NCBI GenBank assembly: GCA_036510155.1 | Contig: DATCEK010000161.1 | Span: 5,347-69,346 of the forward strand | DNA: 64,000 nucleotides | Reading direction: 5' to 3' | From: Solirubrobacteraceae bacterium | GTDB lineage: Bacteria > Actinomycetota > Thermoleophilia > Solirubrobacterales > Solirubrobacteraceae | Shown here: piece by piece, positions 4,698 to 58,023 of the stretch | Layout: the number at the start of each line of letters is the position of its first letter | How positions within the stretch are numbered: position 1 is the first letter of the stretch | Translations under genes and position numbers: made by a program | Notes under the pieces: generated by a model | What the model was told of the DNA's origin: nothing | What the model saw: only the letters and a program-made list of their open reading frames with translations | Databases searched by the model: none

Positions 4698-4864
4698 GGA
4701 CCTGCCGAAAGCACCGGCCGGACGCCCCGGGTCTTCTAAAATGAGGGATAGCAGGCATTTAACGCTCGAATGTCTTTCTGTCCGGTGTGCGCGCGAGGAT
4801 TCTCGGCCCAAGTGAACAGATTCGAGTGGGCGTCGCGAGTGTCGGCGCAGAGGAGGCAAGGCCG

Positions 4865-9681: not shown

Positions 9682-9741
9682 GGAGCCGATAATCACCCGA
9701 GTGAGCGTCCCCAACGGCAGCACTCACGCCAGTCGACGAGT

Positions 9742-10593
9742 CTAGTGACCAGCAGCAGCAGCCTGCTCGGCCACCGCGACACGCGAATCGTCGCGGCTCA
9801 GCATGCTGATGAAGACCGCAGCGAAGGCGATGCCGAAGACGAGGAACTCGACGAAGCACATGCCGGCGCCGGCGACCTGCTGATCGGCGATCGCGCTGAG
9901 GCCAAAAGCGCGAGGAGCTGAGGCGTAGAGCGGGTACTGCGTGGTGGTGATCCAGGTCAGAGGCAGGCAGACCGCCGCGGAGGCGATGCGGCTGAAGCCG
10001 AGTAGCGCCAGGCGCTGACCGTCTGGGCGAGGCCGCACGCGCGGCATCGGATCGATGATCAGCCACCAAAGGGCAAGACCTGTGTAGAACAGGGTCGCGT
10101 GCTCGAATGCGTGCACCACGCTGTGCTGAGCGGCGAAGTCGAAGACCGCCGGGATCGCCCATACCCAGGTGGCGAGCGCCCACAGCGGGATAGCCACCCA
10201 TGGCGAGGTCGCCACCGCCAGCGTTTTGCCCCAGCGTCCGCCGGGAGCGACGGCACGCAGCGCCGGCCGGGCGAGACCGAGGGACAGGACCGGGGAGCGC
10301 AGACCGAGCACCAACAGCGCAGGAGCGATGTCCGAGAGCAAAACGTGCTGGGCCATGTGCGCGGATAGCAGCCAACCGTCGCCGATCGCATCCAAGGGCG
10401 AGAGCAAAGCGACCGCGATCGCAACCAGACCGGCCGTGTAAGGGATCCAGTGGCTGGCGCCGACCGTCTGCGAGCGCGATGCTGCACGCCTGTACATACG
10501 CATGTAAAGGACGGCTGCAGCAAGCAGCGCAAGGATCGCGAGAGGATCGAGGCTCCATGAGCCCCAGCCGGGCACGGAAGTCATCGGCGGCAT
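9742..10593 (-). CDS. ctaG: Cytochrome c oxidase assembly protein (Caa3_CtaG family)
   Basis: LLSPLD...LSAHMAQHVLL..IAPALLVLG, HAFEH..LFYTGLALWW, DQQVAGAGM; multi-transmembrane. Confidence 0.88.
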   Translation of the reverse strand: MPPMTSVPGWGSWSLDPLAILALLAAAVLYMRMYRRAASRSQTVGASHWIPYTAGLVAIAVALLSPLDAIGDGWLLSAHMAQHVLLSDIAPALLVLGLRSPVLSLGLARPALRAVAPGGRWGKTLAVATSPWVAIPLWALATWVWAIPAVFDFAAQHSVVHAFEHATLFYTGLALWWLIIDPMPRVRPRPDGQRLALLGFSRIASAAVCLPLTWITTTQYPLYASAPRAFGLSAIADQQVAGAGMCFVEFLVFGIAFAAVFISMLSRDDSRVAVAEQAAAAGH

Positions 10594-10701
10594 CCTATCG
10601 ATCCGCCCATCGGACGTGTCCCGAGCTCGCCACGAAGCTCGTCCTGCAGCCCGACCGGCGGGAGTGGCGGCCTGCGCCAAAGGGTCCTAGGTCGAGCAAA
10701 G

Positions 10702-11772
10702 TCATTCGCCGCCTCCATAGGACGCGGGCGGGGCCGGGTTCGAGCGGATCGCTGCCAACTGCGCCAGCAGCTCAGCAGGGCTCGTGCCACCCAGCACACG
10801 CAAGCGCGGCAGACGATAAGAGTCGCCGCTGGGCGAGGCCCAGCCGGGGACGACCGTGGTGGAGCCCACATATCCCGCAGCCTTGACGGCGTTTATAACC
10901 GTTGAGTTGTAGTGCCCCGAGGGGTAGCAAAACCAGTTGACCGGCACCTGGTAGCGACGCTGCACCTCAGCCCGCGCGACGGCGACCTGTTCGTGCAGGG
11001 CAGTCGGGCTGAGCGTGATCAGGTCGGCGTGGCTGATCCCCTGCGTGTCGAGCTCCCAGCCGGCGGCCACCAGGCCACGGATCTGCGCATCGCTCAAACC
11101 TCCCTGCGAAGGGGGGAGGCCCGTCAGCTGCATGTTCTCGACACCCACCCAGCCGAGCCGCCGCAACACCGGCAACGCCTGGGTGTACTGGGACTGGTAG
11201 CCGTTGTCGAAGCTCAGCACGATCGGCTTGCCGGCAGGAAGGGGAGTGCCGCGCGTCCAGTTGGCACGCATCTGATCCATCGTCACGGCATGAAAGCCGG
11301 CGCCGGCAAGCGCGCGCGCCTGCGCAGAGAATTCTTCAGGAGAGACGTAGAGCCCAGGAAATTTCGCGCCGGCGGGCGGCGGGTTTATGACGTGGTACAT
11401 CAGGATCGGCACGGACTCGTGACCAAGCGGGCCGGTGCCTGTGCCGGCGGTGCCGGCACTCGAAGGATGGCCAGTCGAGGCGAGGATCGGCCCGGAAGCG
11501 CCTGCGCCACCGCCAGCCTCATTCACGGCATTTGAGCCCTGCCGGCCGGACTGACTGACCGCGTCACTGCCGCCCGAGCCACCAGCGCCAGCAGAACTGG
11601 GCGAGGCCCCCCGCGAGCGGCCTTTCGAGGATTCGCCGCTCGAGCCGAGGACGACGACGGCAGCGATCGTCAGGACGACGATCGCTGCTACGGCGGCGAG
11701 CCCCCGTGTACGTCTGCGCGCAACTTCACGCCGACGTGCCTCACGACGGGCTCGCCGCTGCTCGACGTCCAT
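10702..11772 (-). CDS. Membrane-anchored polysaccharide deacetylase (NodB/CE4)
   Basis: N-terminal transmembrane segment plus Ser/Gly linker; VPILMYH, LSFDNGY, SHADL, FCYPSG, LPRLRV. Confidence 0.88.
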   Translation of the reverse strand: MDVEQRRARREARRREVARRRTRGLAAVAAIVVLTIAAVVVLGSSGESSKGRSRGASPSSAGAGGSGGSDAVSQSGRQGSNAVNEAGGGAGASGPILASTGHPSSAGTAGTGTGPLGHESVPILMYHVINPPPAGAKFPGLYVSPEEFSAQARALAGAGFHAVTMDQMRANWTRGTPLPAGKPIVLSFDNGYQSQYTQALPVLRRLGWVGVENMQLTGLPPSQGGLSDAQIRGLVAAGWELDTQGISHADLITLSPTALHEQVAVARAEVQRRYQVPVNWFCYPSGHYNSTVINAVKAAGYVGSTTVVPGWASPSGDSYRLPRLRVLGGTSPAELLAQLAAIRSNPAPPASYGGGE

Positions 11773-11799
11773 CTGCTCCGTTGCTCGGGCTGGTGGGTG

Positions 11800-12072
11800 C
11801 TAGTTCAGACGCTTCTTCAGCGCGCTCGCCGCTGAGAATTTCGCGGCCTTGCTTGCTGCGATGTTGATCGTCTCCCCCGTCGAGGGATTGCGTCCCTGCC
11901 GGGCCGCGCGATTGCTGACGCTGAACTTGCCGAAACCGGCGAGAGCAACCTCGCCGCCGCCAGCCAGCTCGTCGGAGATCAACTCGATCGCCGTCTCCAG
12001 CGCCTCTCGTGCTTGCGTTCCCGCCAAGCCCGTCCGCTGCGCGACCCCATCAGCCAGCTCGTTCTTTGTCAT
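11800..12072 (-). CDS. hup: HU histone-like DNA-binding protein (90 aa)
   Basis: MTKNELAD...GEVALAGFGKFSVSNRAARQGRNPSTGETINIAASKAAKFSAASALK. Confidence 0.96.
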   Translation of the reverse strand: MTKNELADGVAQRTGLAGTQAREALETAIELISDELAGGGEVALAGFGKFSVSNRAARQGRNPSTGETINIAASKAAKFSAASALKKRLN

Positions 12073-12268
12073 GGCAGTCCCTTCTCGAGTTTCGTTACTG
12101 CGGCCCAGGCTAACGGGTGGCAAGGACGTCCGCACGCCCAGAGCGGCCTCCCTGGCCCGTTCCAGGCCCTAATTTCCGGGGAATATGCCCCATCTACGGG
12201 GCTCGCGACGCCACTTCCCGGCTCATGGCGGCAGGAGGCGAGCTGAGGCCAGGGATGCGCAAGGCGCG

Positions 12269-13282
12269 CTACGCAGAGACACGTGCGCGCGAGGCGGGAT
12301 GCGGCTCGCCCACACCCACGGCACGCGGCTGCAGACGCCCGACCGCGCAAGCGGTCCATAGCACCGAAAGCCATGTGAGCGCCGCGAGGCTGACGTGCAC
12401 CCAAACCAGCTCTGTGGGCAGGTGTGTCTCGTACTGGTCGAGCCCGACCGCCCCTTGCAGGGCGATCAGCACGCACGTGACAGTCGAGAAGCGGCGTACG
12501 AGCGGATCCGCGGGGCCGTCAGGGCCGGGTCGGCGGGCCAGCCACCAGACCAGGAGCGCCACCAGGCCAAACACGAGGGCGATCTCGCCGTGGCGGTGGA
12601 TCACGAAGTCCATCGTGCCCGTGCCGTCGAAGTCCAGGCGGTTGATCTTCTGGCCGGGCGAGCCGCCGGCGTGAGGGCCCGCGGCCGTGGCGGCCGTGCC
12701 GGCAAAGATCGTCAGCGCGCCCAGCACCACGGCGGCACGCGCCCACAGGGTCAGCGTCCTGTCAGTGGAAAGAGGGCGCACGCCAGGCTCATAGGTCGCA
12801 CGCCAGGCAAGCGCGACGGCCGCCACGAGCACCAGCATCGAGAGCGCGAAGTGGGCCATGACCCAGCCATAGTCGAGCGCCCCGCGCACCGTCAAGCCGC
12901 CAAGCACGGCCTGGGCGAGGACCCCGAGCGGCAAAAGCAAGCTCAAACGCATCAGATCGCGGCGGTAGGGCAGGCGGCGGAAGGCCAGCACGAAGGCAGC
13001 GATCGCCGCGATCGAGACCGGGATGGTGATCATCCGGTTTGAGAACTCGATCACCGCATGGGTTTGCAGCGGCGGATAGACCTTGCCGTAGCAGCGTGGC
13101 CACGTCGGGCAACCGAGCCCGGAGTCGGTGAGTCGCACAGCGGCTCCGCTCATGACGATCACGGTGAGCGCCGCCAGCGCGACATATGCCACAAGCGCAT
13201 ACTGCTCAGGTGTGAGCACGAATTCGCCGGCACGACGGCGCAGGAGACTGATACGGCCGGACATCGGGCATAAGCATTGCAT
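12269..13282 (-). CDS. ctaA: Heme A synthase (COX15/CtaA)
   Basis: GAAVRLTDSGLGCPTWPRC, IEFSNR, QAVLGGLTV, HFALS, IHR, QGAVG, VHVSLA. Confidence 0.92.
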   Translation of the reverse strand: MQCLCPMSGRISLLRRRAGEFVLTPEQYALVAYVALAALTVIVMSGAAVRLTDSGLGCPTWPRCYGKVYPPLQTHAVIEFSNRMITIPVSIAAIAAFVLAFRRLPYRRDLMRLSLLLPLGVLAQAVLGGLTVRGALDYGWVMAHFALSMLVLVAAVALAWRATYEPGVRPLSTDRTLTLWARAAVVLGALTIFAGTAATAAGPHAGGSPGQKINRLDFDGTGTMDFVIHRHGEIALVFGLVALLVWWLARRPGPDGPADPLVRRFSTVTCVLIALQGAVGLDQYETHLPTELVWVHVSLAALTWLSVLWTACAVGRLQPRAVGVGEPHPASRARVSA

Positions 13283-13399
13283 TCATGGCCATCGCGCGCG
13301 CCCCCAACGACGTGCTCCAATCACGCCGAATCACACGTTTCCAAATAGTGGGGTTTGCAGGAGATCCCGGTTCGATGCGAAAACATTTGTTTACTTCTT

Positions 13400-14176
13400 A
13401 TGAGCAACATTTACGAACATAACGGAGGCGCCCACCCGCACCTCGAGGATGAGCATGAGCATCCGGTCCTGCGCCCGGCTGACCCCAGGATCGCCAAACA
13501 GGTCCACGAAGCGCTCGGGGATGCTCGCTCAGTCGCCAACGTCGGCGCCGGTGCAGCGGAGTACGAGCCGGTGGATCGCTGGGTCCTCGCGATCGAGCCG
13601 ACCGAGCACAGGGTCACGAGCACCGCCAAAGGCCTGACGACCCCGATCAGGGGCCACGCCGAGGGCCTGCCGATCCCCTCCAACAGCGTGGACGCCGCGA
13701 TGGCGTGTCTGACGCTCCATCAGTGGGCTGACTGGCGCGTAGGCGTGCATGAGCTATTGCGGGTCGCCCGCAAGCGCGTAGTCATCTTCACCTATGACCC
13801 TGCCCATGCCGATCGCTTCTGGCTACTGCGCGACTACCTGCCGAAGCTCGGGCGCCTGCACAGCCGTCGCTTCCCGCCGATCGAGCAGCAGCGTGTCGGC
13901 ATCGGCGACGAGGTACAGGTCAAGACGGTGAACATCCCCCACGATTGCGAGAACGGTTTGCTGGCAGCCCATTGGCGCCGTCCACGGGCATACCTGGACA
14001 AGCGGGTGCGAGCCGGCATACCTACGTTTCAACTGCCGGGCGCTGGATCGCTGCTTGACGGTCTGGAGCAGCTGGCGGAGGATCTCGAGACCGGCCGCTG
14101 GCGCCAACGCAATCGCGAGCTTTTGTCAGTCGAGCAGCTGGATCTCGGCTATCGCCTGCTCGTGACCGAGCTGTAG
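13400..14176 (+). CDS. Class I SAM-dependent methyltransferase-like protein
   Basis: ADPRIA...VANVGAGAAEYEP...AEGLP...VDAAMACLTLHQW; motif I reads GAGAA rather than GAGTG. Confidence 0.75.
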   Translation: MSNIYEHNGGAHPHLEDEHEHPVLRPADPRIAKQVHEALGDARSVANVGAGAAEYEPVDRWVLAIEPTEHRVTSTAKGLTTPIRGHAEGLPIPSNSVDAAMACLTLHQWADWRVGVHELLRVARKRVVIFTYDPAHADRFWLLRDYLPKLGRLHSRRFPPIEQQRVGIGDEVQVKTVNIPHDCENGLLAAHWRRPRAYLDKRVRAGIPTFQLPGAGSLLDGLEQLAEDLETGRWRQRNRELLSVEQLDLGYRLLVTEL

Positions 14177-23835: not shown

Positions 23836-24648
23836 TCAGCCGACGGCGCTGAACAGCGACAGCTCGTCGGAGAGCTTGTCGTACAGGCGCCGGCGCAACT
23901 GGGTGTGGATCTGGGAGACCCTGCTCTCCGACACGCCCAGCCGGGCGCCGATATCGCGCAGCGTCCAGTGCTCCAGGTAGAGCAGCACGGCCACTTCGCG
24001 CTCGACCGGCGGCAACAGCGCGAACTCGGCACGAAAGCGCTCCTTGGCTTCGCGACGCTCCGCGCATACGATCGGGTCGCAATCCGTGTCGGGGCTCTCC
24101 AGCGTGTCGATCCGCTCGATCGTGGCGTTCTCATCGGAGCGCACCGTGCGGTTGAGCGAGCCGACCTCCGCCAGCGCCACCTCGTCGAGGCGACCCACGA
24201 GCTCTCGCGGATCCATGTCGAGCATCGCGGCAAGCTCCTCGCGGCTCGGTGCGCGGTCGTGGTTTGAGAGGAACAGCTCGCGAGCATGGTTGATCGCGCG
24301 CTCGTCGCGCCTGAGCGAGCGCGGCGCCCAGTCGTGGCGGCGCAGCTCGTCGAGCACGGCACCGTGGATGCGCGTCCATGCGTACTGCTCGAGCGTGGCG
24401 CCCTTCTCGGGGTCATAGCGCTCGATCGAGCGGATCAGCGCCTCGAGCCCGCAGGAGAGGAAGTCCTCGACGTCGCACTGGGCCGGTACCTCGCGCACCT
24501 TGCGGTAGACGATGTAGCGCACCATCGGCGTGAAGATGAAGATCAGCTGATCGCGCAGGCGCAGATCGCCGCTTTGGCGGTATTCGCGCCACGTCCTGAG
24601 GGCCTCCGCCGCGGAAATCCTCGAGGTCCCTTTTGCGATCGTTTCCAT
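23836..24648 (-). CDS. fliA: RNA polymerase sigma factor, FliA/WhiG (sigma-28) family
   Basis: LRDQLI, EDFLSCG...AIERYDP-like IERYDPEKG, RIHGAVLDELRRHDW.PRS, LRDIGARLGVSESRVSQIH; embedded in the flagellar cluster. Confidence 0.9.
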   Translation of the reverse strand: METIAKGTSRISAAEALRTWREYRQSGDLRLRDQLIFIFTPMVRYIVYRKVREVPAQCDVEDFLSCGLEALIRSIERYDPEKGATLEQYAWTRIHGAVLDELRRHDWAPRSLRRDERAINHARELFLSNHDRAPSREELAAMLDMDPRELVGRLDEVALAEVGSLNRTVRSDENATIERIDTLESPDTDCDPIVCAERREAKERFRAEFALLPPVEREVAVLLYLEHWTLRDIGARLGVSESRVSQIHTQLRRRLYDKLSDELSLFSAVG

Positions 24649-24915
24649 TTTGCGACTCCGATTTCGAGGGAACTGCGAACAGGGTGCCCCCGCGTGCGCC
24701 AATCTTGCCCGCGGTCCGATGTGCGCTATTTGCGAAGTTTCCGGGCGCGGACCGTACCGGCCGTACCGGTCGTAATCGTTTGATTGGCTCAACCGGGACC
24801 AGTTAGCCAACTCTGCGCATAGCTACGCATAATCAGCACATTTGCAACCTGTTAAATGAGGTATACGAGTTGCCGGGCGCGTCGGTCCCGGCGCGCAAAT
24901 GCTCGAGCGAAGCAC

Positions 24916-24954: not shown

Positions 24955-27483
24955 ATGGCCGCCCCACGCAATCCGAGCCCTGACGAGAGCGCCACTCTGG
25001 CCGCCGATCTCTCCGCGCGCGCCCAGCAACTGCTCGCCGCCGGCGAACTCGACGGCTACCGCCGGCTGTTTGGCGAGCTCGAGACGATCGCCGACCCCCA
25101 CCGCCGCTACCAGGCCGGCGTCGGCCTGATCGAGCAGGGCTTCACCGCAAGCGGCGATGCCCCCCGCGCGCGCGTGGGAGGCCTGTTTTCGGCAATCGCC
25201 ACCGGGGCAGTCGAACAGCTAGAGCGACAGCCAAGCGAGCCCAAGCTGCTCAACTACGCCGGCGTAGCCCTCTATGAGCTGTGGAGCCTCGACGCCGCGC
25301 GCGCGCTGTTCAAGGCCGCCAAGCGTCTGGACCCGCGCTCCGAGCAGGTGGACGGCAACCTGGCCGCACTCGCGGGGAGGCGGCGCCAGCTACGCAGCGC
25401 CGGGGCCGCGGCGCCACAGCACGCCGCCCTCGCCGACCTGGCCAAGCGAGCGCTCAAAGTCGCCAAGCGCGCCCGTCCCGCCACCGGCATGCGCCTCAGT
25501 CTCTGCATGATCGTCCGCGACGAGCAGGAGATGCTGCCGCGCTGCTTGGCCTCCGTGGCCGAGGCGGTCGACGAGATGGTGATCGTGGACACCGGCTCAA
25601 CCGACGCGACGGTCGAGATCGCGCACTCATTTGGCGCGCGCGTGCTCTTCCACGAGTGGACCGGCTCCTTCGCCGAGGCGCGCAACGTGTCCTTCGACGC
25701 GGCCGAGGGCGACTGGCTGCTGTGCCTGGACGCCGACGAGGTGCTGGTGGAGGAGGACGCGCCGCTGCTGCGCTCGCTCACCGGACGCACCTGGCGGGAG
25801 GCGTTCTACCTCTCGGAGACCAACCACACCGGCGACCTCGAGGACGGCACCGCCGTCACCCACAACGCGCTGCGCGTATTTCGCAACCGGCCCGAGTATC
25901 GCTTCGAGGGACGCCTGCACGAGCAGATCGCCCACTGTCTGCCGGGCTACCTACCCGAGCGCATGGAGGCGAGCGGCGTGCGCATCGAGCACTACGGCTA
26001 TCTCGGCGCGGTGCGCGACAGCCGCGAGAAGTCGCGCCGCAACATCGAGCTGCTGCGCTTGCAGCAGAAGGAAAGCCCGCCCACGCCATTCCTGCACTAC
26101 AACCTCGGCTCCGAGTACGCAGCAGCCAACGAACCGCAGGCTGCGCTCGCCGAGTTCGAGCGCGCCTGGAAGTTGCTGCAGAGCCTCCCCGATCGCGACA
26201 GCTACCAGTTCGCGCCGGCCCTGATCAGCCGCATGGTCAAGGCGCTGCGGGCGTGTGGGCGTCCAAGCGACGCGATCGCACGCGCCGAGGAGGGGCTACT
26301 GCGCTTCCAGGGCTTCACCGACCTCGTGCTGGAGCAGGCGATCGCCGCGATCGCGCTGGAGCAAAAGGAGCGCGCAAGCGAGCTGCTCGAACGCTGCATC
26401 GAGATGGGCGACGCGCCGCGCCGTTACACCGCCACACAGGGCAGCGGCAGCTACCTGCCGAGGCTTCAGCTCGCAGAGCTCAGACGCCAGGCCGGCGACT
26501 ACCCAGAGGCGACCCGGCTGCTCGAGTACTGCCTGCGCGAGTACCCCCGCTTCATCGGCTCGGTGCTGCCTTACGCGAGCGTGCTGCTGGCAAGCGGCGT
26601 CGAAGCGGGCGAGGTTGTGGCGCGCGTGGAGCAGCACCTGCCAGACCCGCCACCCGCGGCTCGCTTCATGCTCGGCACCGCTCTCTATGAGTCCGGCGCC
26701 ACCGTCGCCGGTGAGCTTCAGTTCAGGGCGGTGCTGGAACGCCAGCCACATTCCAGTCGGGCGCGCGTGGCGCTCGGCGAGGCGCTGCTTGCACAGCGAC
26801 GCTACGGCGAGGCGGCCGATGTGGCGTGCGAGCTCGCAAACGACGACACGCTGGCGGTGATCGCCCGCCGGACAGAGCTGTTCGCACGTATCGCCGGCGG
26901 CGACACCGAGAACACGGGTCGTGCGCTTGACAGAGCGCGTGTGGCAGGTATGCCGGCCGATGAGCTCGAGCTGTTCTCGATCTGGCGCCAGCTCGCGGAG
27001 GCCGAGATCGACACAACCGCACGCCACGGCGTTGTTCTCACCGAAACGCGCGATCCGGTAACACCCCCCCTTTCCGGACACCCTCTATCGGCAATCCACA
27101 CGCGGTCCGAGCCACCACTCTCCGGACAAGCAGTGGCTCCGCTTCGGCTGATGCTCGAAGCGCTGTTGCGCGTACACGACTTCAAGGCCTTTGAAGTGCT
27201 GCTCGGCGCGCTCGAGCACACGCCGCTACAGCCACGCGAGCGCCGCGAGCTGCTCGCCGATATCTATCTACGGCGCGGGTTCCTGGCATCCGCGGCCGAG
27301 GAATGGATGGCCGTCTGCGAGCAAGAGCCGGACGTGCCGGCGCTGCTTGGCCTGGCCCGCGTGGCGGCCGCGCGAGGGATGGCCGAGGAGATGAGCGACT
27401 TCGCGGCGGAGGCACTTGCACGCGACCCCGACAACGAGGTGGCGAGGACGCTGCTCGCTCGAGCGCATGCGCCAGCCGCATAG
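24955..27483 (+). CDS. TPR-containing GT2 glycosyltransferase, probable flagellin glycosyltransferase
   Basis: LSLCMIVRDEQEMLPRCL, DTGSTD, WTGSFAEARN, LDADE, GRLHEQ, HYGY; TPR-like helices on both sides; flagellar context. Confidence 0.88.
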   Translation: MAAPRNPSPDESATLAADLSARAQQLLAAGELDGYRRLFGELETIADPHRRYQAGVGLIEQGFTASGDAPRARVGGLFSAIATGAVEQLERQPSEPKLLNYAGVALYELWSLDAARALFKAAKRLDPRSEQVDGNLAALAGRRRQLRSAGAAAPQHAALADLAKRALKVAKRARPATGMRLSLCMIVRDEQEMLPRCLASVAEAVDEMVIVDTGSTDATVEIAHSFGARVLFHEWTGSFAEARNVSFDAAEGDWLLCLDADEVLVEEDAPLLRSLTGRTWREAFYLSETNHTGDLEDGTAVTHNALRVFRNRPEYRFEGRLHEQIAHCLPGYLPERMEASGVRIEHYGYLGAVRDSREKSRRNIELLRLQQKESPPTPFLHYNLGSEYAAANEPQAALAEFERAWKLLQSLPDRDSYQFAPALISRMVKALRACGRPSDAIARAEEGLLRFQGFTDLVLEQAIAAIALEQKERASELLERCIEMGDAPRRYTATQGSGSYLPRLQLAELRRQAGDYPEATRLLEYCLREYPRFIGSVLPYASVLLASGVEAGEVVARVEQHLPDPPPAARFMLGTALYESGATVAGELQFRAVLERQPHSSRARVALGEALLAQRRYGEAADVACELANDDTLAVIARRTELFARIAGGDTENTGRALDRARVAGMPADELELFSIWRQLAEAEIDTTARHGVVLTETRDPVTPPLSGHPLSAIHTRSEPPLSGQAVAPLRLMLEALLRVHDFKAFEVLLGALEHTPLQPRERRELLADIYLRRGFLASAAEEWMAVCEQEPDVPALLGLARVAAARGMAEEMSDFAAEALARDPDNEVARTLLARAHAPAA

Positions 27484-34906: not shown

Positions 34907-36483
34907 GCGAATCCTCCGATTTGGATGCACCCCCGCGCGCGCGGGGGGCGTCCCCGTTTCAGAGCTCTCCACCAGGGACGAAGGAGGCATCCGCGTTTCA
35001 GGGCACCCCATCGGGCGCAGGTGACGCATCGCGCCCACAGGGCACCACAACAGGCGGGCTGCTGGCAAGCGCCACACAAGCCGTTCGCGATGCCGATCTT
35101 GCGCGCCGCCACGGCAACGTGTGCAACCTGATCGGTTTGATCATCGAGGTGACCGGCCTGCGTGCGGAGATCGGAGAGGTGTGCCTCGTCGATAACCGAA
35201 TTCCGGCTGAGGTTGTCGGGTTCCGCGACGGGCGCACGCTGCTGATGCCGCTGGGCGAGCTGCACGGCATCGGCCCAGGCACGCGGGTGCTGGCAACCGG
35301 AGCCCCGTTCCGCGTCGCAGTCGGTTCCGGTCTACTCGGTCGCGTCGTCGACGGACTCGGCATACCGCTGGACGAGCTTCCCGCGCCGGAAGGAGTCGAG
35401 CGCTCGACGATCGCCCCGCCCCCAAGCGCGCTCTCGAGGCCCCGCATCACAGAGCGCGTAGGGCTGGGCGTGCGCGCGCTCGACACGCTCGTCCCCTGCG
35501 GGCGTGGCCAGCGACTCGGCATCTTCGCCGGTTCCGGAGTCGGCAAGTCCTCGCTGATGGGGATGATCGCCCGCTCCACGAGCGCACAGGTAAACGTGAT
35601 CGCACTCGTCGGCGAGCGCGGACGCGAGGTGCGCGAGTTCATCGAGCGCGATCTCGGCGACGCGCTCGAGCGCTCGGTCGTCGTCGTAGCCACCTCCGAC
35701 CAACCGGCGCTGGTGCGCATCAAGGCCGCCTTCACTGCCACGACGATCGCCGAGCACTTTCGCGACCAGGGACATGACGTGCTCTTGATGATGGACTCGG
35801 TCACGCGCTTTGCGATGGCCCAGCGCGAGGTTGGTCTGGCGATCGGGGAGCCGCCCGCCACCCGCGGCTACACGCCCAGCGTCTTCGCTTTGCTTCCCCG
35901 CCTGCTCGAGCGCGCCGGTACCAGCACTAGTGGTTCGATCACGGGGCTGTACACGGTGCTCGTCGACGGCGACGACATGAACGAGCCAATCGCAGACGCG
36001 ACGCGCGCGATCCTCGACGGGCACGTCGTGCTTACGCGATCCCTGGCACACGCCGGCCATTACCCGGCGATCGACGTGCTGCAAAGCGTCTCGCGATTGG
36101 TCGGTGAGATCGTCCCGCCTGAGATTGCCGCGGCAGGTCAGCGCCTGCGCTCTGCCTTGGCCGTGCTGCACGAGAAGGAAGACCTGGTAGCGATCGGCGC
36201 CTACCAACCAGGCAGCGATTCTGCGCTTGACACGGCGCTGGCGCATCGCACCCAGATCGAGGGCTTCCTGCGCCAGAGCGTGAACGAGCGCAGCACGCCC
36301 GAGCAGGCCGATACACAACTGCTCGAACTGGCGGCATCGCTGACCGGCGAGGACGCCTCAGGCCCCGTGGATATTGCCGACGGCGAGGAGATCACTGCCG
36401 AGCACATCGATCCCGGGGCAACTCAGGCTGGGAACGTTGCGGCCGAGGTGCCGGCCATACCGGCGCTCGGGCTGAGCATCTAA
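34903..36483 (+). CDS. fliI: Flagellar export ATPase FliI with N- and C-terminal extensions
   Basis: GRGQRLGIFAGSGVGKS, LVGERGREV, MDSVTRFA, LLERAG, LDGHVVL, YPAID. Confidence 0.96.
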   Translation: MSESSDLDAPPRARGASPFQSSPPGTKEASAFQGTPSGAGDASRPQGTTTGGLLASATQAVRDADLARRHGNVCNLIGLIIEVTGLRAEIGEVCLVDNRIPAEVVGFRDGRTLLMPLGELHGIGPGTRVLATGAPFRVAVGSGLLGRVVDGLGIPLDELPAPEGVERSTIAPPPSALSRPRITERVGLGVRALDTLVPCGRGQRLGIFAGSGVGKSSLMGMIARSTSAQVNVIALVGERGREVREFIERDLGDALERSVVVVATSDQPALVRIKAAFTATTIAEHFRDQGHDVLLMMDSVTRFAMAQREVGLAIGEPPATRGYTPSVFALLPRLLERAGTSTSGSITGLYTVLVDGDDMNEPIADATRAILDGHVVLTRSLAHAGHYPAIDVLQSVSRLVGEIVPPEIAAAGQRLRSALAVLHEKEDLVAIGAYQPGSDSALDTALAHRTQIEGFLRQSVNERSTPEQADTQLLELAASLTGEDASGPVDIADGEEITAEHIDPGATQAGNVAAEVPAIPALGLSI

Positions 36484-36555
36484 AAAAAAATCGGCGATGC
36501 CCCCCGCTTGCTTGCCCCGCCATGGGGGCCCGTCATGGGTGTGCGCGCGCGGGGG
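36482..36555 (-). terminator. Possible intrinsic terminator for the antisense surface-protein gene: GC-rich composite hairpin followed by T9 on the minus strand
   Basis: A9 at 36482-36490 on the + strand; CCCCCGC (36500-36506) pairs with GCGGGGG (36549-36555), with inner GC stems. Confidence 0.4.
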
Positions 36556-36607
36556 ACGGTCCTTCGTGCAGAGAGCCATTCGAGCTGGGTCGATCTCGAC
36601 TGCTTGC

Positions 36608-39600
36608 TCAGCGGGCCACGATTGCAAGCGTGCGAGTGATCCTCTGCTGCTCGCCACTGGATGGAGTGACCGTTACTGTGATCGTCAACGTCAGATGTTT
36701 CCTGTGTTTGAGCACCCGTGCGCCCTTTGCGTCGAGCGCCAGGACGAACTTCAGCTGACCTGCCTCGACTTTGCTGCGCTTCGCTCTGGCGAGCACAACC
36801 AACGACAAAAGACTGCCCTTACGTTTGGAAACACCCAGCTGTCCGCCGGGCACGGCGGCGTCTACTTCCACCCGGACAGCAGGGGCATCAAGGCCGAGCA
36901 TTACCAACAGCGAGCTCCCATGCTGCGATACCTGGAGCGCCAGGCCTTCGTGCACAGGGCTGACCGGAGTCGGGGGCGGCGTCGGACCGGCAATTTTGAC
37001 AGGTGGGGCGAGCGGTGCAACAGGCGGCGCAGGACCGATCGGTTCGACAAGCAGCGCACGCGCCATGGTCGTAAACGTCATTTCGCTGCTGTATTGCTTG
37101 GCTGAGCCATCCACTCCCACCAGCCGGTAGTGGTAGGTGGTGCTCGGAGCCAGTCCGGTGACGCTCTGGTCAGCTTCCACGTCACCGTTGCCTGACCCGG
37201 CGCTCACCTGAGCAGTGTTCGTGCCGTAGCCAGACGTGAGGCCATATTCGAAGTAGTAGGCCACGTTCGTGCCGTGCGGGTTGACCGTCCCGCTGAACGT
37301 CGCTTCTTCGGTACCGACATCTGCGGGGGAGTTGGTCTGTACAGATGGCGCTACGCCGGTCGAGAATGTGCGATCAGCCCCGTAGGTGGTGCCGTATTCG
37401 GTCTTAGCCACTACGCGGAAATGGTAAGTGGTGTTTTCCGCCAGGTAATCGAGGGTCTGCACAGCTTGCACGTTGCCGGTACGCGAGCCGGCGGCGACTT
37501 CGGCTGTGCGTGCGCCGTAGCTCTGGCTGGCTCCATATTCGAAGTAGTAGCTCGTCTTCGTGCCATTTGGGTCGATCGTCCCGTTCAGTGTGGCATCGTC
37601 GTAGCCAACCGCTTCGGGTGCGCCTGTTTCCGCCAGAGGTTCATAGGGCGTCGAGAACCATTCTTCGGCCCCATAGCTCGTTCCGTAGCTGTTGCTTGCA
37701 ACGATCCGATAGTAATAGCGCGTGCCGGGCGTGAGGCCACTGATGGCTTCTTTCTCTTCTTCGCCCCTCACTCCCGCGACTTCTTGTTCGGCGGTGCGCT
37801 GCCCATAGGCTTCCGTGGTGCCATATTCGAAGTAGTATTTCGTGGTCTCGCCTTTTCCGTAGACGCCACTTTTGAGGGTGGCACTTGTGTAACCGCGGGT
37901 ATATATCGGTTCGCTGAACACTATCGGCTTGCCACCCAGCGTTTCGAATTCCTTGTCTTTCCCTATCGTTGTTCCGCGGCCGTTGGTCACGACGAGCCGG
38001 TAGTGGTAGCTGGTTCCCGGCGCGAGACCGGCGAGTGGAGCGCTTATTTTCACAAATTCATCGCCCGACCCAGCGCTTGCTTCAGGCGTTCTCGACCCGT
38101 ACGCCGTCGTGGTGCCGTATTCGAAGTAGTACTTGGTTTCGACCCCAACCGGTCGCACTTCGCCGTCAAGCGTGGCTTCGGTGAGCCCAACATTGCTCGT
38201 TCCTTCTTCCTTGATTTCCGCATAGTAGGGAGTGGTAAATTCGCGGTCCACGCCGTTGGCACTGCCGTTGCTAGTCTTGACCACCACCCGCCAGTGATAG
38301 GGGATGCTGTGTTGCAATCCGGTAATCGTGGCGCTCACTTTGACAGCTCCCCACGCGGCCGGAACAGATGCTTCGACAGTCTTGGCGCCGTAGGCTTCGC
38401 TCCTGCCGTATTCGAAGTAATAGTGAGCCTGGAGATCGCACGGGTGGATTGATGTTTCGATCTTCTCCGATTCGGGGGTCAGGTTCGTGGCGCCTTGTTC
38501 TTCGTAGGAGGTTTCGGCGTACGGGCCGATCGGGAGCGCTGGCCCAGGGTCGCTGTCTTCAACCTCACACGCGTCCTTGGAGTCATCCCAGAGGTATGCC
38601 ACCTCCACCCCGCCCAGTCGCCCGGAGCTCAGTCCATTGCAGATGTCGCCGATCTCATCGCCGCCCACTCCTTCGCCCGTATTCCACCCGGACGCGCCGT
38701 CCGCGTCAGTGACACTCTCGGCGTACTCGTGGGTGAGGGTCTTCGTCGTGTTACACCCGATCCGTTCTTCGGGGTCCATGACAACCGCGATCGAAGGGCC
38801 GGCTTTGCCACTGCCATACTCCTCGTGAAATCCGCACGTCCTGGCTTCCGCTTCGACCGTGCCTGGCGCGGGCACGACCATGTAGGTGGTGTCGGTTCTC
38901 TCCCAGCCTTCGGTCTGGTTGATCGCCTTTTCGCCAGCCTGCATGGCAGCGTAACTGTCGATCCTAGTCGTGATCGGCTGTTTGACGTAGTACTTTTCGA
39001 TCACAGGCGAGCCTGCGAGCGGCTGGGATATCGGACCATCCAGGCCGCTGTATTGCGTCAATATCTCCTCATAGGCCGATCCGGTCAGGTCTTCTGCGGT
39101 CGTTTCGAGCTTATGGCGCAGTGTGAGGTCAGATCCGTGTTCCCATTCTTCGCCGAGGAAGACGAGCATCAGGTGCGGTTCGTTCTGGATCGTGCCACCG
39201 TGGTATGTGAGCCGCGAGGGCGAGGAGGTGAGCGGACGCACTCCGGCGCTCAACGCCGCGGCCGCACCTCCCGCGACCGCTCCTGCTCCGGCGCCAACTC
39301 CTGCTCCTGCTCCTGCTCCAGCTCGGGCTTGGGCTCGGGCTCCCAACTCATCGTCCGCGAGCCGGGAGTTCTGCGGCTCGGTCGGGTCGAAATGCACCCT
39401 CTTGCCCTTCGCCCATGCAGGCACCGGCACGCCCGGGGGCAGGCCGTCGGCGGCAAACGCCGCAGATGTCCCATGGGCCGCCAGCAGCAAGATGAGCGCG
39501 AGCAACAGCGCAAACAGGCTCCAGCGCGCCGAGGGAAGCGATCGAGATGTCGCCAACACCGTTGCGTGGCGGTCTGACCCCCCGACGTCCCGCCCTTCCG

Positions 39601-39616
39601 CTTCAACCACGCCCAT
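36608..39616 (-). CDS. Large secreted protein: EXORDIUM/Phi-1-like domain plus five FnIII-like repeats and a Pro-rich linker
   Basis: Signal-like WSLFALLLALILLLAAHGTSAAFA; LTYHGG, CGFH, THEYAESVTD..GW....EIGDIC; five repeats with YYFEYG..AYG...GL.PGT.YHYR. Start placed at ATG 39616. Confidence 0.8.
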   Translation of the reverse strand: MGVVEAEGRDVGGSDRHATVLATSRSLPSARWSLFALLLALILLLAAHGTSAAFAADGLPPGVPVPAWAKGKRVHFDPTEPQNSRLADDELGARAQARAGAGAGAGVGAGAGAVAGGAAAALSAGVRPLTSSPSRLTYHGGTIQNEPHLMLVFLGEEWEHGSDLTLRHKLETTAEDLTGSAYEEILTQYSGLDGPISQPLAGSPVIEKYYVKQPITTRIDSYAAMQAGEKAINQTEGWERTDTTYMVVPAPGTVEAEARTCGFHEEYGSGKAGPSIAVVMDPEERIGCNTTKTLTHEYAESVTDADGASGWNTGEGVGGDEIGDICNGLSSGRLGGVEVAYLWDDSKDACEVEDSDPGPALPIGPYAETSYEEQGATNLTPESEKIETSIHPCDLQAHYYFEYGRSEAYGAKTVEASVPAAWGAVKVSATITGLQHSIPYHWRVVVKTSNGSANGVDREFTTPYYAEIKEEGTSNVGLTEATLDGEVRPVGVETKYYFEYGTTTAYGSRTPEASAGSGDEFVKISAPLAGLAPGTSYHYRLVVTNGRGTTIGKDKEFETLGGKPIVFSEPIYTRGYTSATLKSGVYGKGETTKYYFEYGTTEAYGQRTAEQEVAGVRGEEEKEAISGLTPGTRYYYRIVASNSYGTSYGAEEWFSTPYEPLAETGAPEAVGYDDATLNGTIDPNGTKTSYYFEYGASQSYGARTAEVAAGSRTGNVQAVQTLDYLAENTTYHFRVVAKTEYGTTYGADRTFSTGVAPSVQTNSPADVGTEEATFSGTVNPHGTNVAYYFEYGLTSGYGTNTAQVSAGSGNGDVEADQSVTGLAPSTTYHYRLVGVDGSAKQYSSEMTFTTMARALLVEPIGPAPPVAPLAPPVKIAGPTPPPTPVSPVHEGLALQVSQHGSSLLVMLGLDAPAVRVEVDAAVPGGQLGVSKRKGSLLSLVVLARAKRSKVEAGQLKFVLALDAKGARVLKHRKHLTLTITVTVTPSSGEQQRITRTLAIVAR

Positions 39617-39716
39617 CCCCCCGGATCCGCCACCAGTCACGTCGAACTCGCTTGCCCATAAGCGTACCCCTGGCGGCGCCCATTGACAATCTGGCCTTTT
39701 CCCGGCTGGACCGTCC

Positions 39717-39743
39717 TCAAGAAAGGCGCTCATCGACCGATAA
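39717..39743 (+). promoter_or_regulatory. Sigma-28-type promoter for the fliJ operon (TCAA-N15-ACCGATAA)
   Basis: Consensus match 7 bp before the fliJ GTG. Confidence 0.75.
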
Positions 39744-39750
39744 CCGGGCC

Positions 39751-40209
39751 GTGAACGGATCCGTTTTTCGCTTTCGCCTGGAGCGCGTGCGTGCGCTACG
39801 CGAGCGCAAAGAGCAGCAGGCCCAGCAAGAGTTGGCGCGTGCGATCTCGCTGCGCACCGGCGCCGAGGCAGGCCTTCGCGCTGCCGAGGCGGAGCTTGCG
39901 CGAGCGCATACCGAACACCGAGCGCTAGTGGGCGAGCCACAAGCGCTCGCGGCCAGTGAGCTCATGGCGCGCCAGGCATTTGCGGAGCGCGTCGAGGCGC
40001 ATCGGGGCGCACAGGCACAGGAGCTCGAGCAACGCAAGGCGACGGTTGCCGAACGCGATGCCACGCTCACCGTCGCCACGACCGAGCATGAGACGCTCAA
40101 GCGCCTCAGAGAGCGCCAACATGGTGAGCACGAGCGAGCGCGTGCGAGCCGCGAACAGAGCGAGCTCGACGAAATCGCAGCCGCCCGCTTCGGCCGGAGC
40201 GGCGCATGA
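39751..40209 (+). CDS. fliJ: Flagellar export protein FliJ
   Basis: FRFRLERVRALRERKEQQAQQELA...LKRLRERQ...EQSELDEIA. Confidence 0.92.
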   Translation: MNGSVFRFRLERVRALRERKEQQAQQELARAISLRTGAEAGLRAAEAELARAHTEHRALVGEPQALAASELMARQAFAERVEAHRGAQAQELEQRKATVAERDATLTVATTEHETLKRLRERQHGEHERARASREQSELDEIAAARFGRSGA

Positions 40210-40916
40210 GCGCGGGCGCGATTGCTCCCAGCGCCGGCATGCCCGCAGACGAGCTGGCGATCAGCCAACGCGTGCAACAGCTGCAGACACTGATCGAACA
40301 GACTCGCCAAGTCGGCTCGGGGAGCACGCCGATAAGCACGTCCTACGGGACCACCGCAACAGTCAGCCCAGCCGCGACGGACTCATCCGTACCAGCCGGG
40401 GGCTTCGCCGCCGCGCTCCAAGCCGCGACAATGGAGAACTCCCCCTCCTCAACCGCGGCGCAGAGCGAAAGCGCGGCAGGTGCCGGAGCTGGCGGCGGCG
40501 AATACGGCAGCGTGATCGAACAGGCAGCCGAGCGCTACGGCATCGACCCAGCCGTCTTGCACGGCCTGATCCAGCAGGAGTCGGGCTTTGACCCTGGCGC
40601 CCAAAGCAGCGCCGGCGCAAGCGGTTTGACACAGCTGATGCCCGGGACCGCTTCGTCGATGGGCGTTGCAAACCCACTCAACCCGACCGAATCGATCGAA
40701 GGCGGAGCGCGCTACCTCAGCCAGCTGATGAGCCAGTTCGGCGGCAACACCGAAGATGCCCTGGCCGCATACAACGCCGGGCCCGGCGCCGTCCAACAGT
40801 ACGGCGGCATACCGCCCTACGCCGAAACCCAGGGCTATGTCTCCAAGGTGCTCGGCTATGCCGAAACCTATCGTCAAACGCACCCCACCTCGATCTCTGC
40901 CGGGGGTCTGGCGTGA
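40206..40916 (+). CDS. Lytic transglycosylase (SLT domain)
   Basis: AAERYGIDP..L..LIQQESGFDP.AQS.AGASGLTQLMPGTA, ALAAYNAG, PPYAETQGYV. Confidence 0.93.
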   Translation: MSAGAIAPSAGMPADELAISQRVQQLQTLIEQTRQVGSGSTPISTSYGTTATVSPAATDSSVPAGGFAAALQAATMENSPSSTAAQSESAAGAGAGGGEYGSVIEQAAERYGIDPAVLHGLIQQESGFDPGAQSSAGASGLTQLMPGTASSMGVANPLNPTESIEGGARYLSQLMSQFGGNTEDALAAYNAGPGAVQQYGGIPPYAETQGYVSKVLGYAETYRQTHPTSISAGGLA

Positions 40917-43015
40917 ACGCCCCAGTCCCCCTGGCCGCACCCAGGACCTCGCTGCCCTCCACCTCGCCGCCACCGAGCGGTGTCAGCCGCTCGAGCCCGC
41001 GTTCAGGCGCTCCACCAGGAGCCTCCGAAGGAGCCCCGCCCGGGGCCCCTTCGGAGGCCCCGCCAGGTGCGCCGTTTCAAAGCGCGCTCGCTACACATTG
41101 GGCCCGGACCGCCACTGCGGAAGGCCATCCAAAGAGCAGCCCAAGAGGTCGGGGCGAGAGTTCGCGCCATACCCGCGCGACACGCGCCGGCGAAAGCGAC
41201 GCGAGCGCCGCCGGCCAACGTGGCGTCAACGGCGCTGACGGCGGGATCGCGACTTCCCGCGCGTCCGCGTCCGGGCTCTCTGCGCCAGACCTAGCGGCCG
41301 CCACAACCCGCGCTCAGGAAGGCGGACCAGAGGCAAGGACCCGAGCGGGCGGAACGGCCGCCTCCACGACGGTCGGCGTGCCGGTCGGCGCCACTCCGAC
41401 ATCGACATCTACCGATGACGCACACCTATCGACGTTCGCGCCCGACACGACGTCCATGCCACTGCCCGGGCTCCCATCGAGCACAGCAGTTGTGTCTGGC
41501 CCAACCACCGCCGCCGGTGCGCTTCCGGCTTCGCCGCACGCAGCTTCACCTGTCGGCCCCGGAGGCCCGACAGGGGCTGTTACCGCTTCTGCCGGGACAA
41601 GCCTCTCGTCTACCGTTGCGCCTCTGGTCATGCCGCTACCCAGCGGAGCCGACGGCTCGCTTGCGCCGACATCCACGCCGGTCGCGAGGTCCACCGCGGA
41701 TCCTGGCGTCGCATCCGGCGCGACTTCCTCGACGACAACCGCAGCGCCGGTATCCACGCCGGCTACAACGTCCCCACCCGCAGCGACAGCCTCCGCCGCT
41801 CCGAGCGTCACAGGCCCCGGCGTCTCGAGTGTCCCGTCCGTCGCTGACATTGGCACCTCATCCTCCGCCGACCCTCGCACCCCACCCTCCGTGACTCCTG
41901 GCTTTGACACACCACGCTCCGCTGCTGCCCTTGGCAGCGCACCCACAGCGGTCCCTGATGCCCCACGCTCCACTGCTCCTGGCAACCCATCCTCCAACCT
42001 CCCCCTCACCGCCCCCGCGGCTGCTCCGGGCAGCGCACCCAACGCGGTCCCTGATACCCCGTACTCCGCTGCTCCTGGCGCCTCATCCTCCGCCGCTGCT
42101 CCTGACTTTCCTTCAGTCTCCCCTTCAGTCGCCGGTGCATATGCAGCCGGCCAAGGTGGTGCGCGCATGAGTTCATCACCTCGGGACACCAACATCCCGC
42201 CCCCGGGGGCCTCCACCTCGCTGTCAGGCCCCGTGGCCGCAAGCGCGCCCACAGCCGGGGCGCCCGGCGCAACAGCGGCGCCCGCAACGGCTGGCGCTTC
42301 GACGATCGGTTCCCGCGGCGCGCTGCTGGCCTTGGGACCGCCGCTAGCGGAGCCAGCCGGCACAGCGACGGTGCGGAGCCGAGCGGGCGCAACGAATGTG
42401 TCCCCGCTCGGCCAAGCCGGCTTGCGCCCAACCCTCGCGGCAGTCACGACGCCGGCGGCCGAGAGCTCAAGCCTCGCAAACCTGGCAACCCTCGATGCTG
42501 GCACAAGTCCCAACCCTGGAATGAGCGTCGGCGGCACAGGTCCCGATAGCGGCGGAAACGGACTTCCGTTTGCTGGCCTGCAGATGCAGGAGACGATCGA
42601 CTCGATCGGCGCGACGATCGAGCTTGCCGCCCGTCAAGGCATCGTCAAGGCAAGAATCGAGCTTCAGCCTGAAGAGCTCGGCCACATCAGCATTCGTTTG
42701 AGCCAGACCAACGAAGGCCTGCGTGCGCGCGTGACCGCCGAGACTCCAGCTGGCGCACAAGCGCTTAACCAGGGCCGCTCTGAGCTGCGTCAGTCGCTCG
42801 ACTCGCTCGGCCTGTCGCTGTTGCAGCTCGATATCGGCTCCTCCGGCCAACCGCGCAGCGGCGAACGCGACCAAAACTTTGCCGGCAATGTCGAGGGGCC
42901 CAGCGCGCTCAGCGCAACAGACGCTGTTGAGGAGAGCAAAACGCTCGGGGACCACCCGGACGATGCACGTCCGGTCGGTAGCCCACTTGGCGAAATTGTG
43001 GACGTACTCGCATGA
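40913..43015 (+). CDS. fliK: Hook-length control protein FliK (700 aa)
   Basis: Long Pro/Ser/Thr/Ala region; C-terminal ARIELQPEELGHISIRL...LRQSLDSLGL. Confidence 0.9.
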   Translation: MNAPVPLAAPRTSLPSTSPPPSGVSRSSPRSGAPPGASEGAPPGAPSEAPPGAPFQSALATHWARTATAEGHPKSSPRGRGESSRHTRATRAGESDASAAGQRGVNGADGGIATSRASASGLSAPDLAAATTRAQEGGPEARTRAGGTAASTTVGVPVGATPTSTSTDDAHLSTFAPDTTSMPLPGLPSSTAVVSGPTTAAGALPASPHAASPVGPGGPTGAVTASAGTSLSSTVAPLVMPLPSGADGSLAPTSTPVARSTADPGVASGATSSTTTAAPVSTPATTSPPAATASAAPSVTGPGVSSVPSVADIGTSSSADPRTPPSVTPGFDTPRSAAALGSAPTAVPDAPRSTAPGNPSSNLPLTAPAAAPGSAPNAVPDTPYSAAPGASSSAAAPDFPSVSPSVAGAYAAGQGGARMSSSPRDTNIPPPGASTSLSGPVAASAPTAGAPGATAAPATAGASTIGSRGALLALGPPLAEPAGTATVRSRAGATNVSPLGQAGLRPTLAAVTTPAAESSSLANLATLDAGTSPNPGMSVGGTGPDSGGNGLPFAGLQMQETIDSIGATIELAARQGIVKARIELQPEELGHISIRLSQTNEGLRARVTAETPAGAQALNQGRSELRQSLDSLGLSLLQLDIGSSGQPRSGERDQNFAGNVEGPSALSATDAVEESKTLGDHPDDARPVGSPLGEIVDVLA

Positions 43016-49523: not shown

Positions 49524-49550
49524 TCAAGACCTGCCTCCTCGGGCCGATAA
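49524..49550 (+). promoter_or_regulatory. Sigma-28-type promoter for fliOPQR-flhBAF (TCAA-N15-GCCGATAA)
   Basis: Perfect -10 box and correct spacing. Confidence 0.85.
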
Positions 49551-57852: not shown

Positions 57853-57996
57853 ACCGGCACGCGAGGCTATGTCCGAAAGGCGATGCTTCCCGCGCGCGCG
57901 GGGAGCCATGTCGGGTTTTGGTCGCGTATGGGGCGGCCCCGCAGTGCAGGAAATCTTGCGCACAGAGGGAATCGTGCCGGCCGCGATGAATCCAGC

Positions 57997-58023
57997 TCAA
58001 GTTTCGTCGCTTGTCGGCGATAA
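57997..58023 (+). promoter_or_regulatory. Sigma-28-type promoter for fliC (TCAA-N15-GGCGATAA)
   Basis: Consensus match upstream of the flagellin leader. Confidence 0.8.

Follow-up and report, generated by a model that had tools for sequence, protein, structure and literature searches.

The antisense gene between fliI and fliJ

The stretch of DNA analysed here (hereafter the window) comprises 64,000 nucleotides (nt) from a Solirubrobacteraceae bacterium (contig DATCEK010000161.1), and identification of its genes with Pfam and NCBIfam showed it to carry a large flagellar gene cluster of a high-GC bacterium. Our interest centred on a gene that lies on the minus strand between the flagellar genes fliI and fliJ (36608-39616) and encodes a multidomain, putatively secreted protein of 1002 amino acids (aa). 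We consider it likely that this is an accessory secreted-protein gene, housed at an operon boundary that the flagellar cluster already had and not part of the flagellar system itself, and that its product carries a zincin-like head domain.

The open reading frame (ORF) list and domain scans of the flanks placed the intact antisense gene between FliI (PF00006, 9.5e-91; TIGR01026, 4e-172) and FliJ (TIGR02473, 2e-16). The fliI stop codon (TAA, 36481-36483, plus strand) and the GTG-initiated fliJ (39751-40209, plus strand) bound a gap whose single long ORF runs from 36608 to 39940 on the minus strand. The ATG at 39616 is kept in an orthologue on a Solirubrobacterales chromosome (L005), which sets the length at 1002 residues and the stop codon at 36608-36610; the part of the frame upstream of this ATG is merely stop-free, high-GC sequence overlapping fliJ. 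Residue numbers given below (e.g., H404) follow the whole ORF, in which the signal-like N-terminus starts at residue 109.

In L005, too, this antisense gene separates fliI from fliJ. Identity between its product and the window protein is 70% over the head domain, 65% over the repeats and 82% over the C-terminal domain. The ratio of nonsynonymous to synonymous substitution rates (dN/dS) between the two is 0.28 (0.23 for the head domain), showing that the gene is under purifying selection; the initial annotation, made from the DNA letters and ORF translations, had proposed a gene of about 1000 aa at this site, and it is real. The synonymous divergence (dS) of the inserted gene between the window and L005 (0.74) is close to that of fliI (0.65) and fliJ (0.54), thus the gene has been at the site for about as long as these two lineages have been separate.

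A close relative, L004, has no insert and an intact flagellar cluster, with a fliI-fliJ gap of 160 bp, which indicates that the gene is dispensable for such a cluster. When this gap was aligned with the window, homology on the left extended through the end of fliI and both arms of a hairpin, and homology on the right resumed at a sigma-28 promoter motif. Approximately 93 bp of L004 spacer are replaced by approximately 3.16 kb in the window, and the limits of the indel fall exactly between the terminator-like hairpin and the promoter. Remnants of the L004 spacer and repeats at the borders of the insert were looked for and none were found.

Synteny was compared across 30 Solirubrobacterales-type loci carrying both fliI and fliJ. 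The two genes are adjacent in most of them, 35-250 bp apart, and the inserted gene occupies the site in just one of about 29 related loci, that of L005. Other lineages have other occupants. Six loci (L015, L018, L020, L022, L023 and L040) have an antisense gene of ∼140-170 aa in the gap with an IclR-type helix-turn-helix (HTH_IclR, 7.6e-12), which may be a lineage-specific regulator inside the flagellar cluster. In L028, a Thermoleophilaceae metagenome-assembled genome (MAG), fliM and fliN lie in the gap on the same strand (9361-10990), a gene order that differs from the window, where fliM/N follows motB. The gap of L031 holds genes for an ornithine cyclodeaminase (OCD), an extracytoplasmic function (ECF) sigma factor and a WD40 protein. 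The fliI-fliJ junction is a natural operon boundary that has been reused by various genes in various lineages.

Elements of the operon boundary

The boundary is made up of a hairpin behind fliI and a promoter ahead of fliJ. The GC-rich hairpin downstream of fliI (36499-36557) has the arms GCCCCCCGC and GCGGGGGAC, with extra sequence in its loop in the window. Between it and fliI lies a run of nine A on the plus strand, i.e., nine T on the minus strand (36482-36490), which begins with the A's of the fliI stop codon and is the longest A/T homopolymer in the 64-kb window. The initial annotation held that this hairpin and T run protect fliI from the convergent transcript. Both elements do exist, but folding of the window hairpin showed no advantage over shuffled sequence (z -0.67), 8 nt lie between it and the T run, and a terminator scan of the window did not flag it. 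In L004 the hairpin is perfect (ATGCCCCCCGCGCGCGCGGGGGGCAT, -31 kcal/mol, z -3.7), and it is degraded in both the window and L005. Its presence in a stronger form in a genome without the gene shows that the hairpin is ancestral. The only boundary feature that tracks the insert across these three genomes is the length of the A/T run, which is A5 in L004 and A9 and A8 in the insert-bearing window and L005, respectively; across so few genomes, a longer run fits a role in stopping the convergent transcript.

Upstream of fliJ, a sigma-28 (FliA/WhiG)-type promoter, TCAA-N15-ACCGATAA, was located on the plus strand at 39717-39743, exactly where the initial annotation had put it, ending 7 nt before the GTG start codon. 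Motifs of this kind number two in the window against 0.1 expected. FliA/WhiG promoters follow the consensus TAAA-N15-GCCGATAA; the -35 element in this clade is instead CTCAAG or CTAAAG. Nearly every Solirubrobacterales locus, whether or not it has an insert, keeps CT(A/C)AAG-N-CCGAT(A/T)A ahead of fliJ at a distance of 7 nt from the GTG. This includes loci where fliI and fliJ are just 35-90 bp apart; in L009 the -35 element takes in the fliI stop codon. Further motifs of this type lie before fliO, directly after the fliM/N stop codon (49524-49550, CTCAAG-N-GCCGATAA), and upstream of the flagellin gene (∼57996-58023, CTCAAG-N-GGCGATAA). The fliJ promoter is credible because the same motif precedes these two genes and because the cluster contains the gene for a FliA/WhiG sigma factor (23836-24822, minus strand). 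Together, the three sites would define a clade-specific FliA/WhiG promoter consensus. A further departure from typical FliA/WhiG promoters is the proximity of the -10 element to the start codon, owing to which the fliJ mRNA is probably leaderless.

The separation of fliI from fliJ had been described as a split for which the fliJ promoter and the hairpin compensate. Both elements are ancestral and predate the insert, and so they do not compensate for it. Rather, the junction appears to tolerate many different genes in Thermoleophilia because it is a boundary of a hairpin and a conserved, probably leaderless, sigma-28-type fliJ promoter.

The inserted gene itself has a putative housekeeping-type promoter on the minus strand (39661-39689), read by eye as a -35 element TTGTCA (39689-39684), a 17-nt spacer and a -10 element TACGCT (39666-39661). 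Part of it falls in a 25-nt block (39648-39672) without differences between the window and L005, and the L005 elements are TTGGCA and TACGCT, which suggests that the gene may be read from a promoter of its own. A simple promoter and terminator scan did not flag a sigma-70 site, the TTGTCA/TACGCT element included. The sigma-28 motif T[AC]AA-N14-16-NCCGATA was not found anywhere in the window on the minus strand, i.e., the strand of the inserted gene.

Architecture of the encoded protein

The protein begins with a signal-peptide-like N-terminus (ORF residues 109-163; 39452-39616, minus strand, as are all segments below), identified by inspection from its hydrophobic core and AFA|AD ending and conserved in homologues. 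It is followed by a segment conserved throughout the family, ADGLPPGVPVPAWAKGKRVHFDP, which may be a prosegment, and by a variable Gly/Ala linker translated as ARAGAGAGAGVGAGAGAVAGG (39239-39343), the two together spanning 39218-39451. The head domain comes next (ORF residues 242-470; 38531-39217), and after it come five FN3-like beta-sandwich repeats (37067-38458). These are ∼97 aa each, share 31-39% identity with one another and have an invariant YYFEYG..YG core. FN3-type Pfam models match them above threshold: Pur_ac_phosph_N (1.7e-14, 54.5 bits, cutoff 30), fn3 (2e-9, 38 bits, cutoff 25) and PhoD_N (34.5 bits, cutoff 30). The same models describe the PhoD_N and purple-acid-phosphatase-N-type repeats of actinobacterial secreted proteins; unlike in those proteins, no phosphatase catalytic domain follows the repeats of the window protein, which form a tandem array of putative spacer or binding modules. 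A Pro-rich linker (ORF residues 966-996; 36953-37045) leads to a C-terminal domain of ∼114 aa (36611-36952) that is conserved in close homologues. No Pfam domain was found in the last 152 residues. All parts that follow the head domain would serve as spacer or binding modules, giving it reach or binding capacity.

The signal peptide, Gly/Ala linker, five FnIII-like repeats and Pro-rich stretch noted in the initial annotation, along with the head-domain motifs it quoted (LTYHGG, CGFH, HEYAESVTD, GW and EIGDIC), are thus all present in the translation. Its description of the product as a surface protein found no such backing, as there is neither an LPXTG motif nor a hydrophobic tail at the C-terminus (...RITRTLAIVAR), and Pfam detected no known wall-binding domain.

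A large family with a probable remote relation to EXORDIUM

The head domain, ∼235 aa in length with four essentially invariant cysteines, defines a family that is absent from Pfam and unannotated, with representative clusters numbering over 1000. Pfam and NCBIfam scans of the complete sequence, the isolated head domain and the tail returned FN3-like matches only. PF04674, the Phi_1 family of plant EXORDIUM/PHOSPHATE-INDUCED 1 proteins that the initial annotation had invoked, was not matched by the whole protein at E ≤ 0.1 or by the isolated head domain at E ≤ 10. Searches of PDB sequences with the single sequence, the family profile and a plant EXORDIUM (EXO) profile returned nothing, and neither group has a solved structure. 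A word-indexed homologue search retrieved only three relatives, and the same type of search with the family profile yielded just 24 'hypothetical' proteins without informative names or Pfam labels. An exhaustive profile search, by comparison, detected 1140 representative clusters at E ≤ 1e-3, 324 of them at E ≤ 1e-10.

Members share a common architecture of a signal peptide, a segment of the DGLPPGVPVPxWAxGKxIHF type, a domain of ∼250 aa and at least one FN3-like module, whose YxFEYG..YG core is common across the family. They often have further repeats, or lectin, TIG, Laminin_G or Big modules, fusions that are also frequent in secreted hydrolases. Ten positions are invariant in 142 representatives (G263, Y297, H372, C396, H404, E405, E408, E429, C434 and C458) and three more are nearly so (C369, W419 and D432). 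The HExxE sequence, noted in the initial annotation as a possible metal site, is hence a conserved feature of the family, along with H372.

Similarity to plant EXORDIUM is weak but consistent. Just five of 31 family members match PF04674 on their own, and do so weakly (best E 1.1e-5); one member whose score was inspected reached 13.2 bits against a cutoff of 25. When the family profile was aligned by hhalign with a profile of 25 bona fide plant EXO/PHI-1 proteins, all annotated with PF04674, the probability was 64.7% (E 6.2e-5) over 188 collinear columns. The alignment runs through the motifs LxYHxG, an (I/L)(F/I)W(Y)G strand, CGxH, T(D/N)P..G(W/Y) and ExxxxC. The family hidden Markov model (HMM) detects plant sequences with P values of 2e-9 to 4e-6, while the plant HMM detects bacterial sequences with P of only ∼5e-4. 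Both groups are secreted and have domains of similar size. The bacterial proteins differ in having the extra N-terminal segment and the FN3-like or other modules, and plant EXO proteins have S-L-L-A-G at the position of the invariant H-E-x-x-E. Based on these comparisons, the relationship is probably one of superfamily and not of membership, so that the earlier assignment of an EXORDIUM/Phi-1-like domain is plausible as a remote relation but not as a Pfam Phi_1 domain with a shared HExxE site.

Predicted fold and putative metal site

An AlphaFold2 model of the head domain built from the 31-sequence alignment had a mean predicted local distance difference test score (pLDDT) of 86.9 and a predicted template modelling score (pTM) of 0.86; a four-sequence alignment gave a pLDDT of 51 and was unusable. 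Among the top 50 structural neighbours in the PDB as ranked by Foldseek, 49 are zincin- or metzincin-type proteases or glycopeptidases and the remaining one is the catalytically inactive ADAM22. They include ADAM33, ADAM8, ADAMTS-4, snake-venom adamalysins, fragilysin/BFT, ulilysin, Amuc_1438 and OgpA. The probabilities of these matches were up to 0.99, but E values were ∼1e-3 and template modelling (TM) scores 0.3-0.45. Among viral structures, Foldseek found no significant match.

The predicted order of elements, β1-αA-β2-αB-β3-β4-β5-αC, is that of a zincin, with HEYAE on αC. The invariant H404-E405-x-x-E408 (38717-38731, minus strand) would then occupy the helix equivalent to that of the zincin HExxH motif, and invariant His372 of CGFH (38825-38827, minus strand) falls on predicted strand β4, which may correspond to the strand lining the zincin active-site cleft. 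Metzincins have the zinc-binding motif HExxHxxGxxH/D and a Met-turn. The head domain departs from this motif, reading H404-E405-Y-A-E408-S-V-T-D, and no counterpart of the third ligand or the Met-turn was pinpointed in it. The likeness to metzincins and adamalysins (ADAMs, snake-venom metalloproteinases, fragilysin and ulilysin) thus consists of the same predicted alpha/beta topology, with a helix after the fifth strand that places H-E-x-x equivalently, without detectable sequence similarity. Like the window protein as predicted, these proteases are secreted and disulfide-bonded, and often have a prosegment and C-terminal modules.

Genomic contexts and composition of the family

Homologues of the inserted gene occur in varied surroundings. 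The one in L001 lies among copper-resistance, MFS and sugar genes, that in L002 in a mobile region with transposase, relaxase and resolvase genes, and that in L003 near HipA and ABC genes. The L002 homologue (10001-13913) is itself split by an insertion sequence (IS): its head domain and FN3-like repeats are parted by transposase genes (10934-12087) with rve and HTH_Tnp_1 domains. Short family members of 424-433 aa lie directly downstream of ftsZ on independent contigs (L084, 6001-7302; L087, 6001-7275; L088, 1824-3098), between the dcw cell-wall and division cluster and glycine-cleavage genes. No flagellar genes were present near any of the homologues examined outside the fliI-fliJ site. The position of the inserted gene had been taken as a hint of a motility or adhesion role. 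With unrelated genes at the same site in relatives, an outcome that the initial annotation had itself named as contrary, and homologues without flagellar neighbours elsewhere, none of the evidence indicates a link to motility.

The inserted gene is more A/T-rich than its neighbours, as had been remarked, with 61.4% GC against 65-69% and a GC content at third codon positions (GC3) of 0.70 against 0.80-0.85. The same holds for the family as a whole: GC3 was 0.68-0.75 for family genes and 0.8-0.93 for their neighbours in all seven contexts examined (window 36608-39616, L001, L002, L005, L084, L085 and L087), including the copies beside the dcw cluster. Low GC is therefore a property of the gene family and not the mark of a recent arrival, and recent horizontal transfer was rejected as its cause.

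Proposed role and alternative explanations

In our interpretation, the Solirubrobacterales fliFGHI unit would end in the hairpin and fliJ would open a new unit from its own FliA/WhiG-type promoter. Since the hairpin ends one unit and the promoter starts the next, DNA placed between them would disturb nothing. The window lineage and one relative carry an insert there with a single gene, probably read from its own housekeeping-type promoter, running towards the old fliI hairpin and what is now a lengthened T run. The product is predicted to be exported via a Sec-type signal peptide, and its head domain would most likely be a secreted, disulfide-stabilised, zincin-like metal-dependent hydrolase, probably a peptidase. 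We propose that His404 and Glu408 on the active-site helix bind the metal with His372 of the neighbouring strand as the third ligand, and that Glu405 acts as the general base. A prosegment role, possibly keeping the enzyme latent, is conceivable for the conserved N-terminal segment.

Several points weigh against this interpretation. The fold match is weak in absolute terms, as the Foldseek E values and TM scores show, and sequence methods (Pfam and PDB searches) link the head domain to no peptidase family. To our knowledge, HExxE does not number among the established zincin motifs, and a clustering of His372, His404 and Glu408 is a proposal. With regard to the history of the locus, identities over FliH, FliI, FliJ and the SLT lytic transglycosylase (L004-L005 88.8%, window-L005 86.9%, window-L004 86.2%) are compatible both with loss of the gene in L004 and with its never having been there, through recombination between lineages. 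Finally, the gene has been retained in two lineages near that flagellar transglycosylase, so a locally useful role is possible.

This last point is the core of a different explanation, in which the gene is functionally tied to the flagellum and its position reflects co-function, the product being a secreted peptidase that cleaves peptidoglycan or matrix, or an adhesin, acting with the transglycosylase encoded two genes away. Its maintenance at the same position in two lineages under purifying selection would agree with this, and the short family members placed right behind ftsZ on two contigs, where the dcw cluster ends, hint at envelope roles. We nevertheless regard a flagellar tie as very unlikely, given that L004 and some 28 further flagellated relatives have intact clusters but lack the gene, that other lineages have unrelated genes at the same site, that close homologues reside in non-flagellar or mobile contexts, and that the gene's strand has a conserved putative housekeeping-type promoter in place of a sigma-28 motif. 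The least probable of the alternatives is that the region is a recent horizontally acquired island of mobile-element cargo whose lower GC marks a foreign origin. The composition of the gene and the mobile, IS-split L002 homologue would be expected of such cargo, but no repeats, integrase or transposase flank the insert, its dS against the L005 orthologue resembles that of the flanking genes and makes it as old as the lineage split, and GC3 is low in every family member examined, beside the dcw cluster as well as here.

A further alternative concerns the head domain, which could be a non-catalytic binding module, a bona fide bacterial EXORDIUM/Phi_1 domain whose conserved His and Glu residues are structural or bind a ligand. 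A non-catalytic binding role is possible, as is presumed for plant EXO, for which no enzymatic activity is reported in the literature retrieved (abstract of PMC2661892), and the collinear hhalign alignment, the matches of the family profile to plant EXO and the five members matching PF04674 all lend it some weight. On balance this seems unlikely: the window protein has no PF04674 match and one member falls well short of the cutoff (13 of 25 bits), the H..HExxE..E pattern is invariant in 142 diverged sequences, as is typical of catalytic or metal sites, precisely the H-E-x-x-E residues are replaced in plants, and the structural neighbours are active metalloproteases with the sole exception of ADAM22. 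A zincin-like hydrolase thus remains our preferred reading of the head domain.

For flagellar biology, these results are mainly corrective, in that the separation of fliI from fliJ makes use of an ancestral boundary and is not a disruption that had to be compensated. The insertion itself is ordinary, and the protein family is an unannotated variant within zincin-like/Phi_1 space. The protein is the more useful lead. Its family of secreted proteins from soil bacteria is large and unannotated and combines an invariant H/HExxE/E/Cys4 signature with a predicted zincin-like fold and a remote tie to EXORDIUM. If both that tie and the catalytic site are true, the biochemical function of EXORDIUM-like proteins becomes directly testable. 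We tentatively raise the possibility, doubtful as it may be, that the bacterial family represents the ancestral, catalytically competent form of EXORDIUM/Phi-1, a zincin-fold metallohydrolase with an unusual metal site formed by a β-strand His and HExxE, and that plant EXORDIUM proteins are degenerate pseudo-enzymes that lost this site. We found no literature linking EXORDIUM to zincins. Were the ancestral-form reading true, it would offer a first biochemical handle on a plant growth-regulator family whose mechanism is unknown.

Other features of the window

The flagellar cluster includes flgK, a rod gene, the FliA/WhiG sigma factor gene, fliD, fliS, flgB, fliF, fliG, fliH and fliI, and resumes after the insert with fliJ, the SLT lytic transglycosylase gene, a fliK-like gene, flgD, flgE, motA, motB, fliM/N, fliO, fliP, fliQ, flhB, flhA, flhF and flagellin. 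The closest relatives of its FliI are from Solirubrobacterales MAGs (83% identity). A search for sequencing runs containing the window sequence found peat metagenome DNA runs as the sole holders and no RNA runs.

Three other genes of the window have unusual features. An intein that contains a LAGLIDADG homing-endonuclease domain interrupts a class II (B12-dependent) ribonucleotide reductase of 1359 aa (4763-8842). Divergent from the fliA/whiG sigma factor gene, a gene for an 842-aa protein (24955-27483) encodes a glycosyltransferase family 2 domain and tetratricopeptide (TPR) repeats, making it a candidate for a flagellin-glycosylation or cluster-associated enzyme. The fliK-like ORF (40913-43015, 700 aa) is extremely rich in Pro, Ala, Ser and Thr and mostly of low complexity, with a GC content at second codon positions (GC2) of 0.72, and only its C-terminal part looks like a folded hook-length-control domain.

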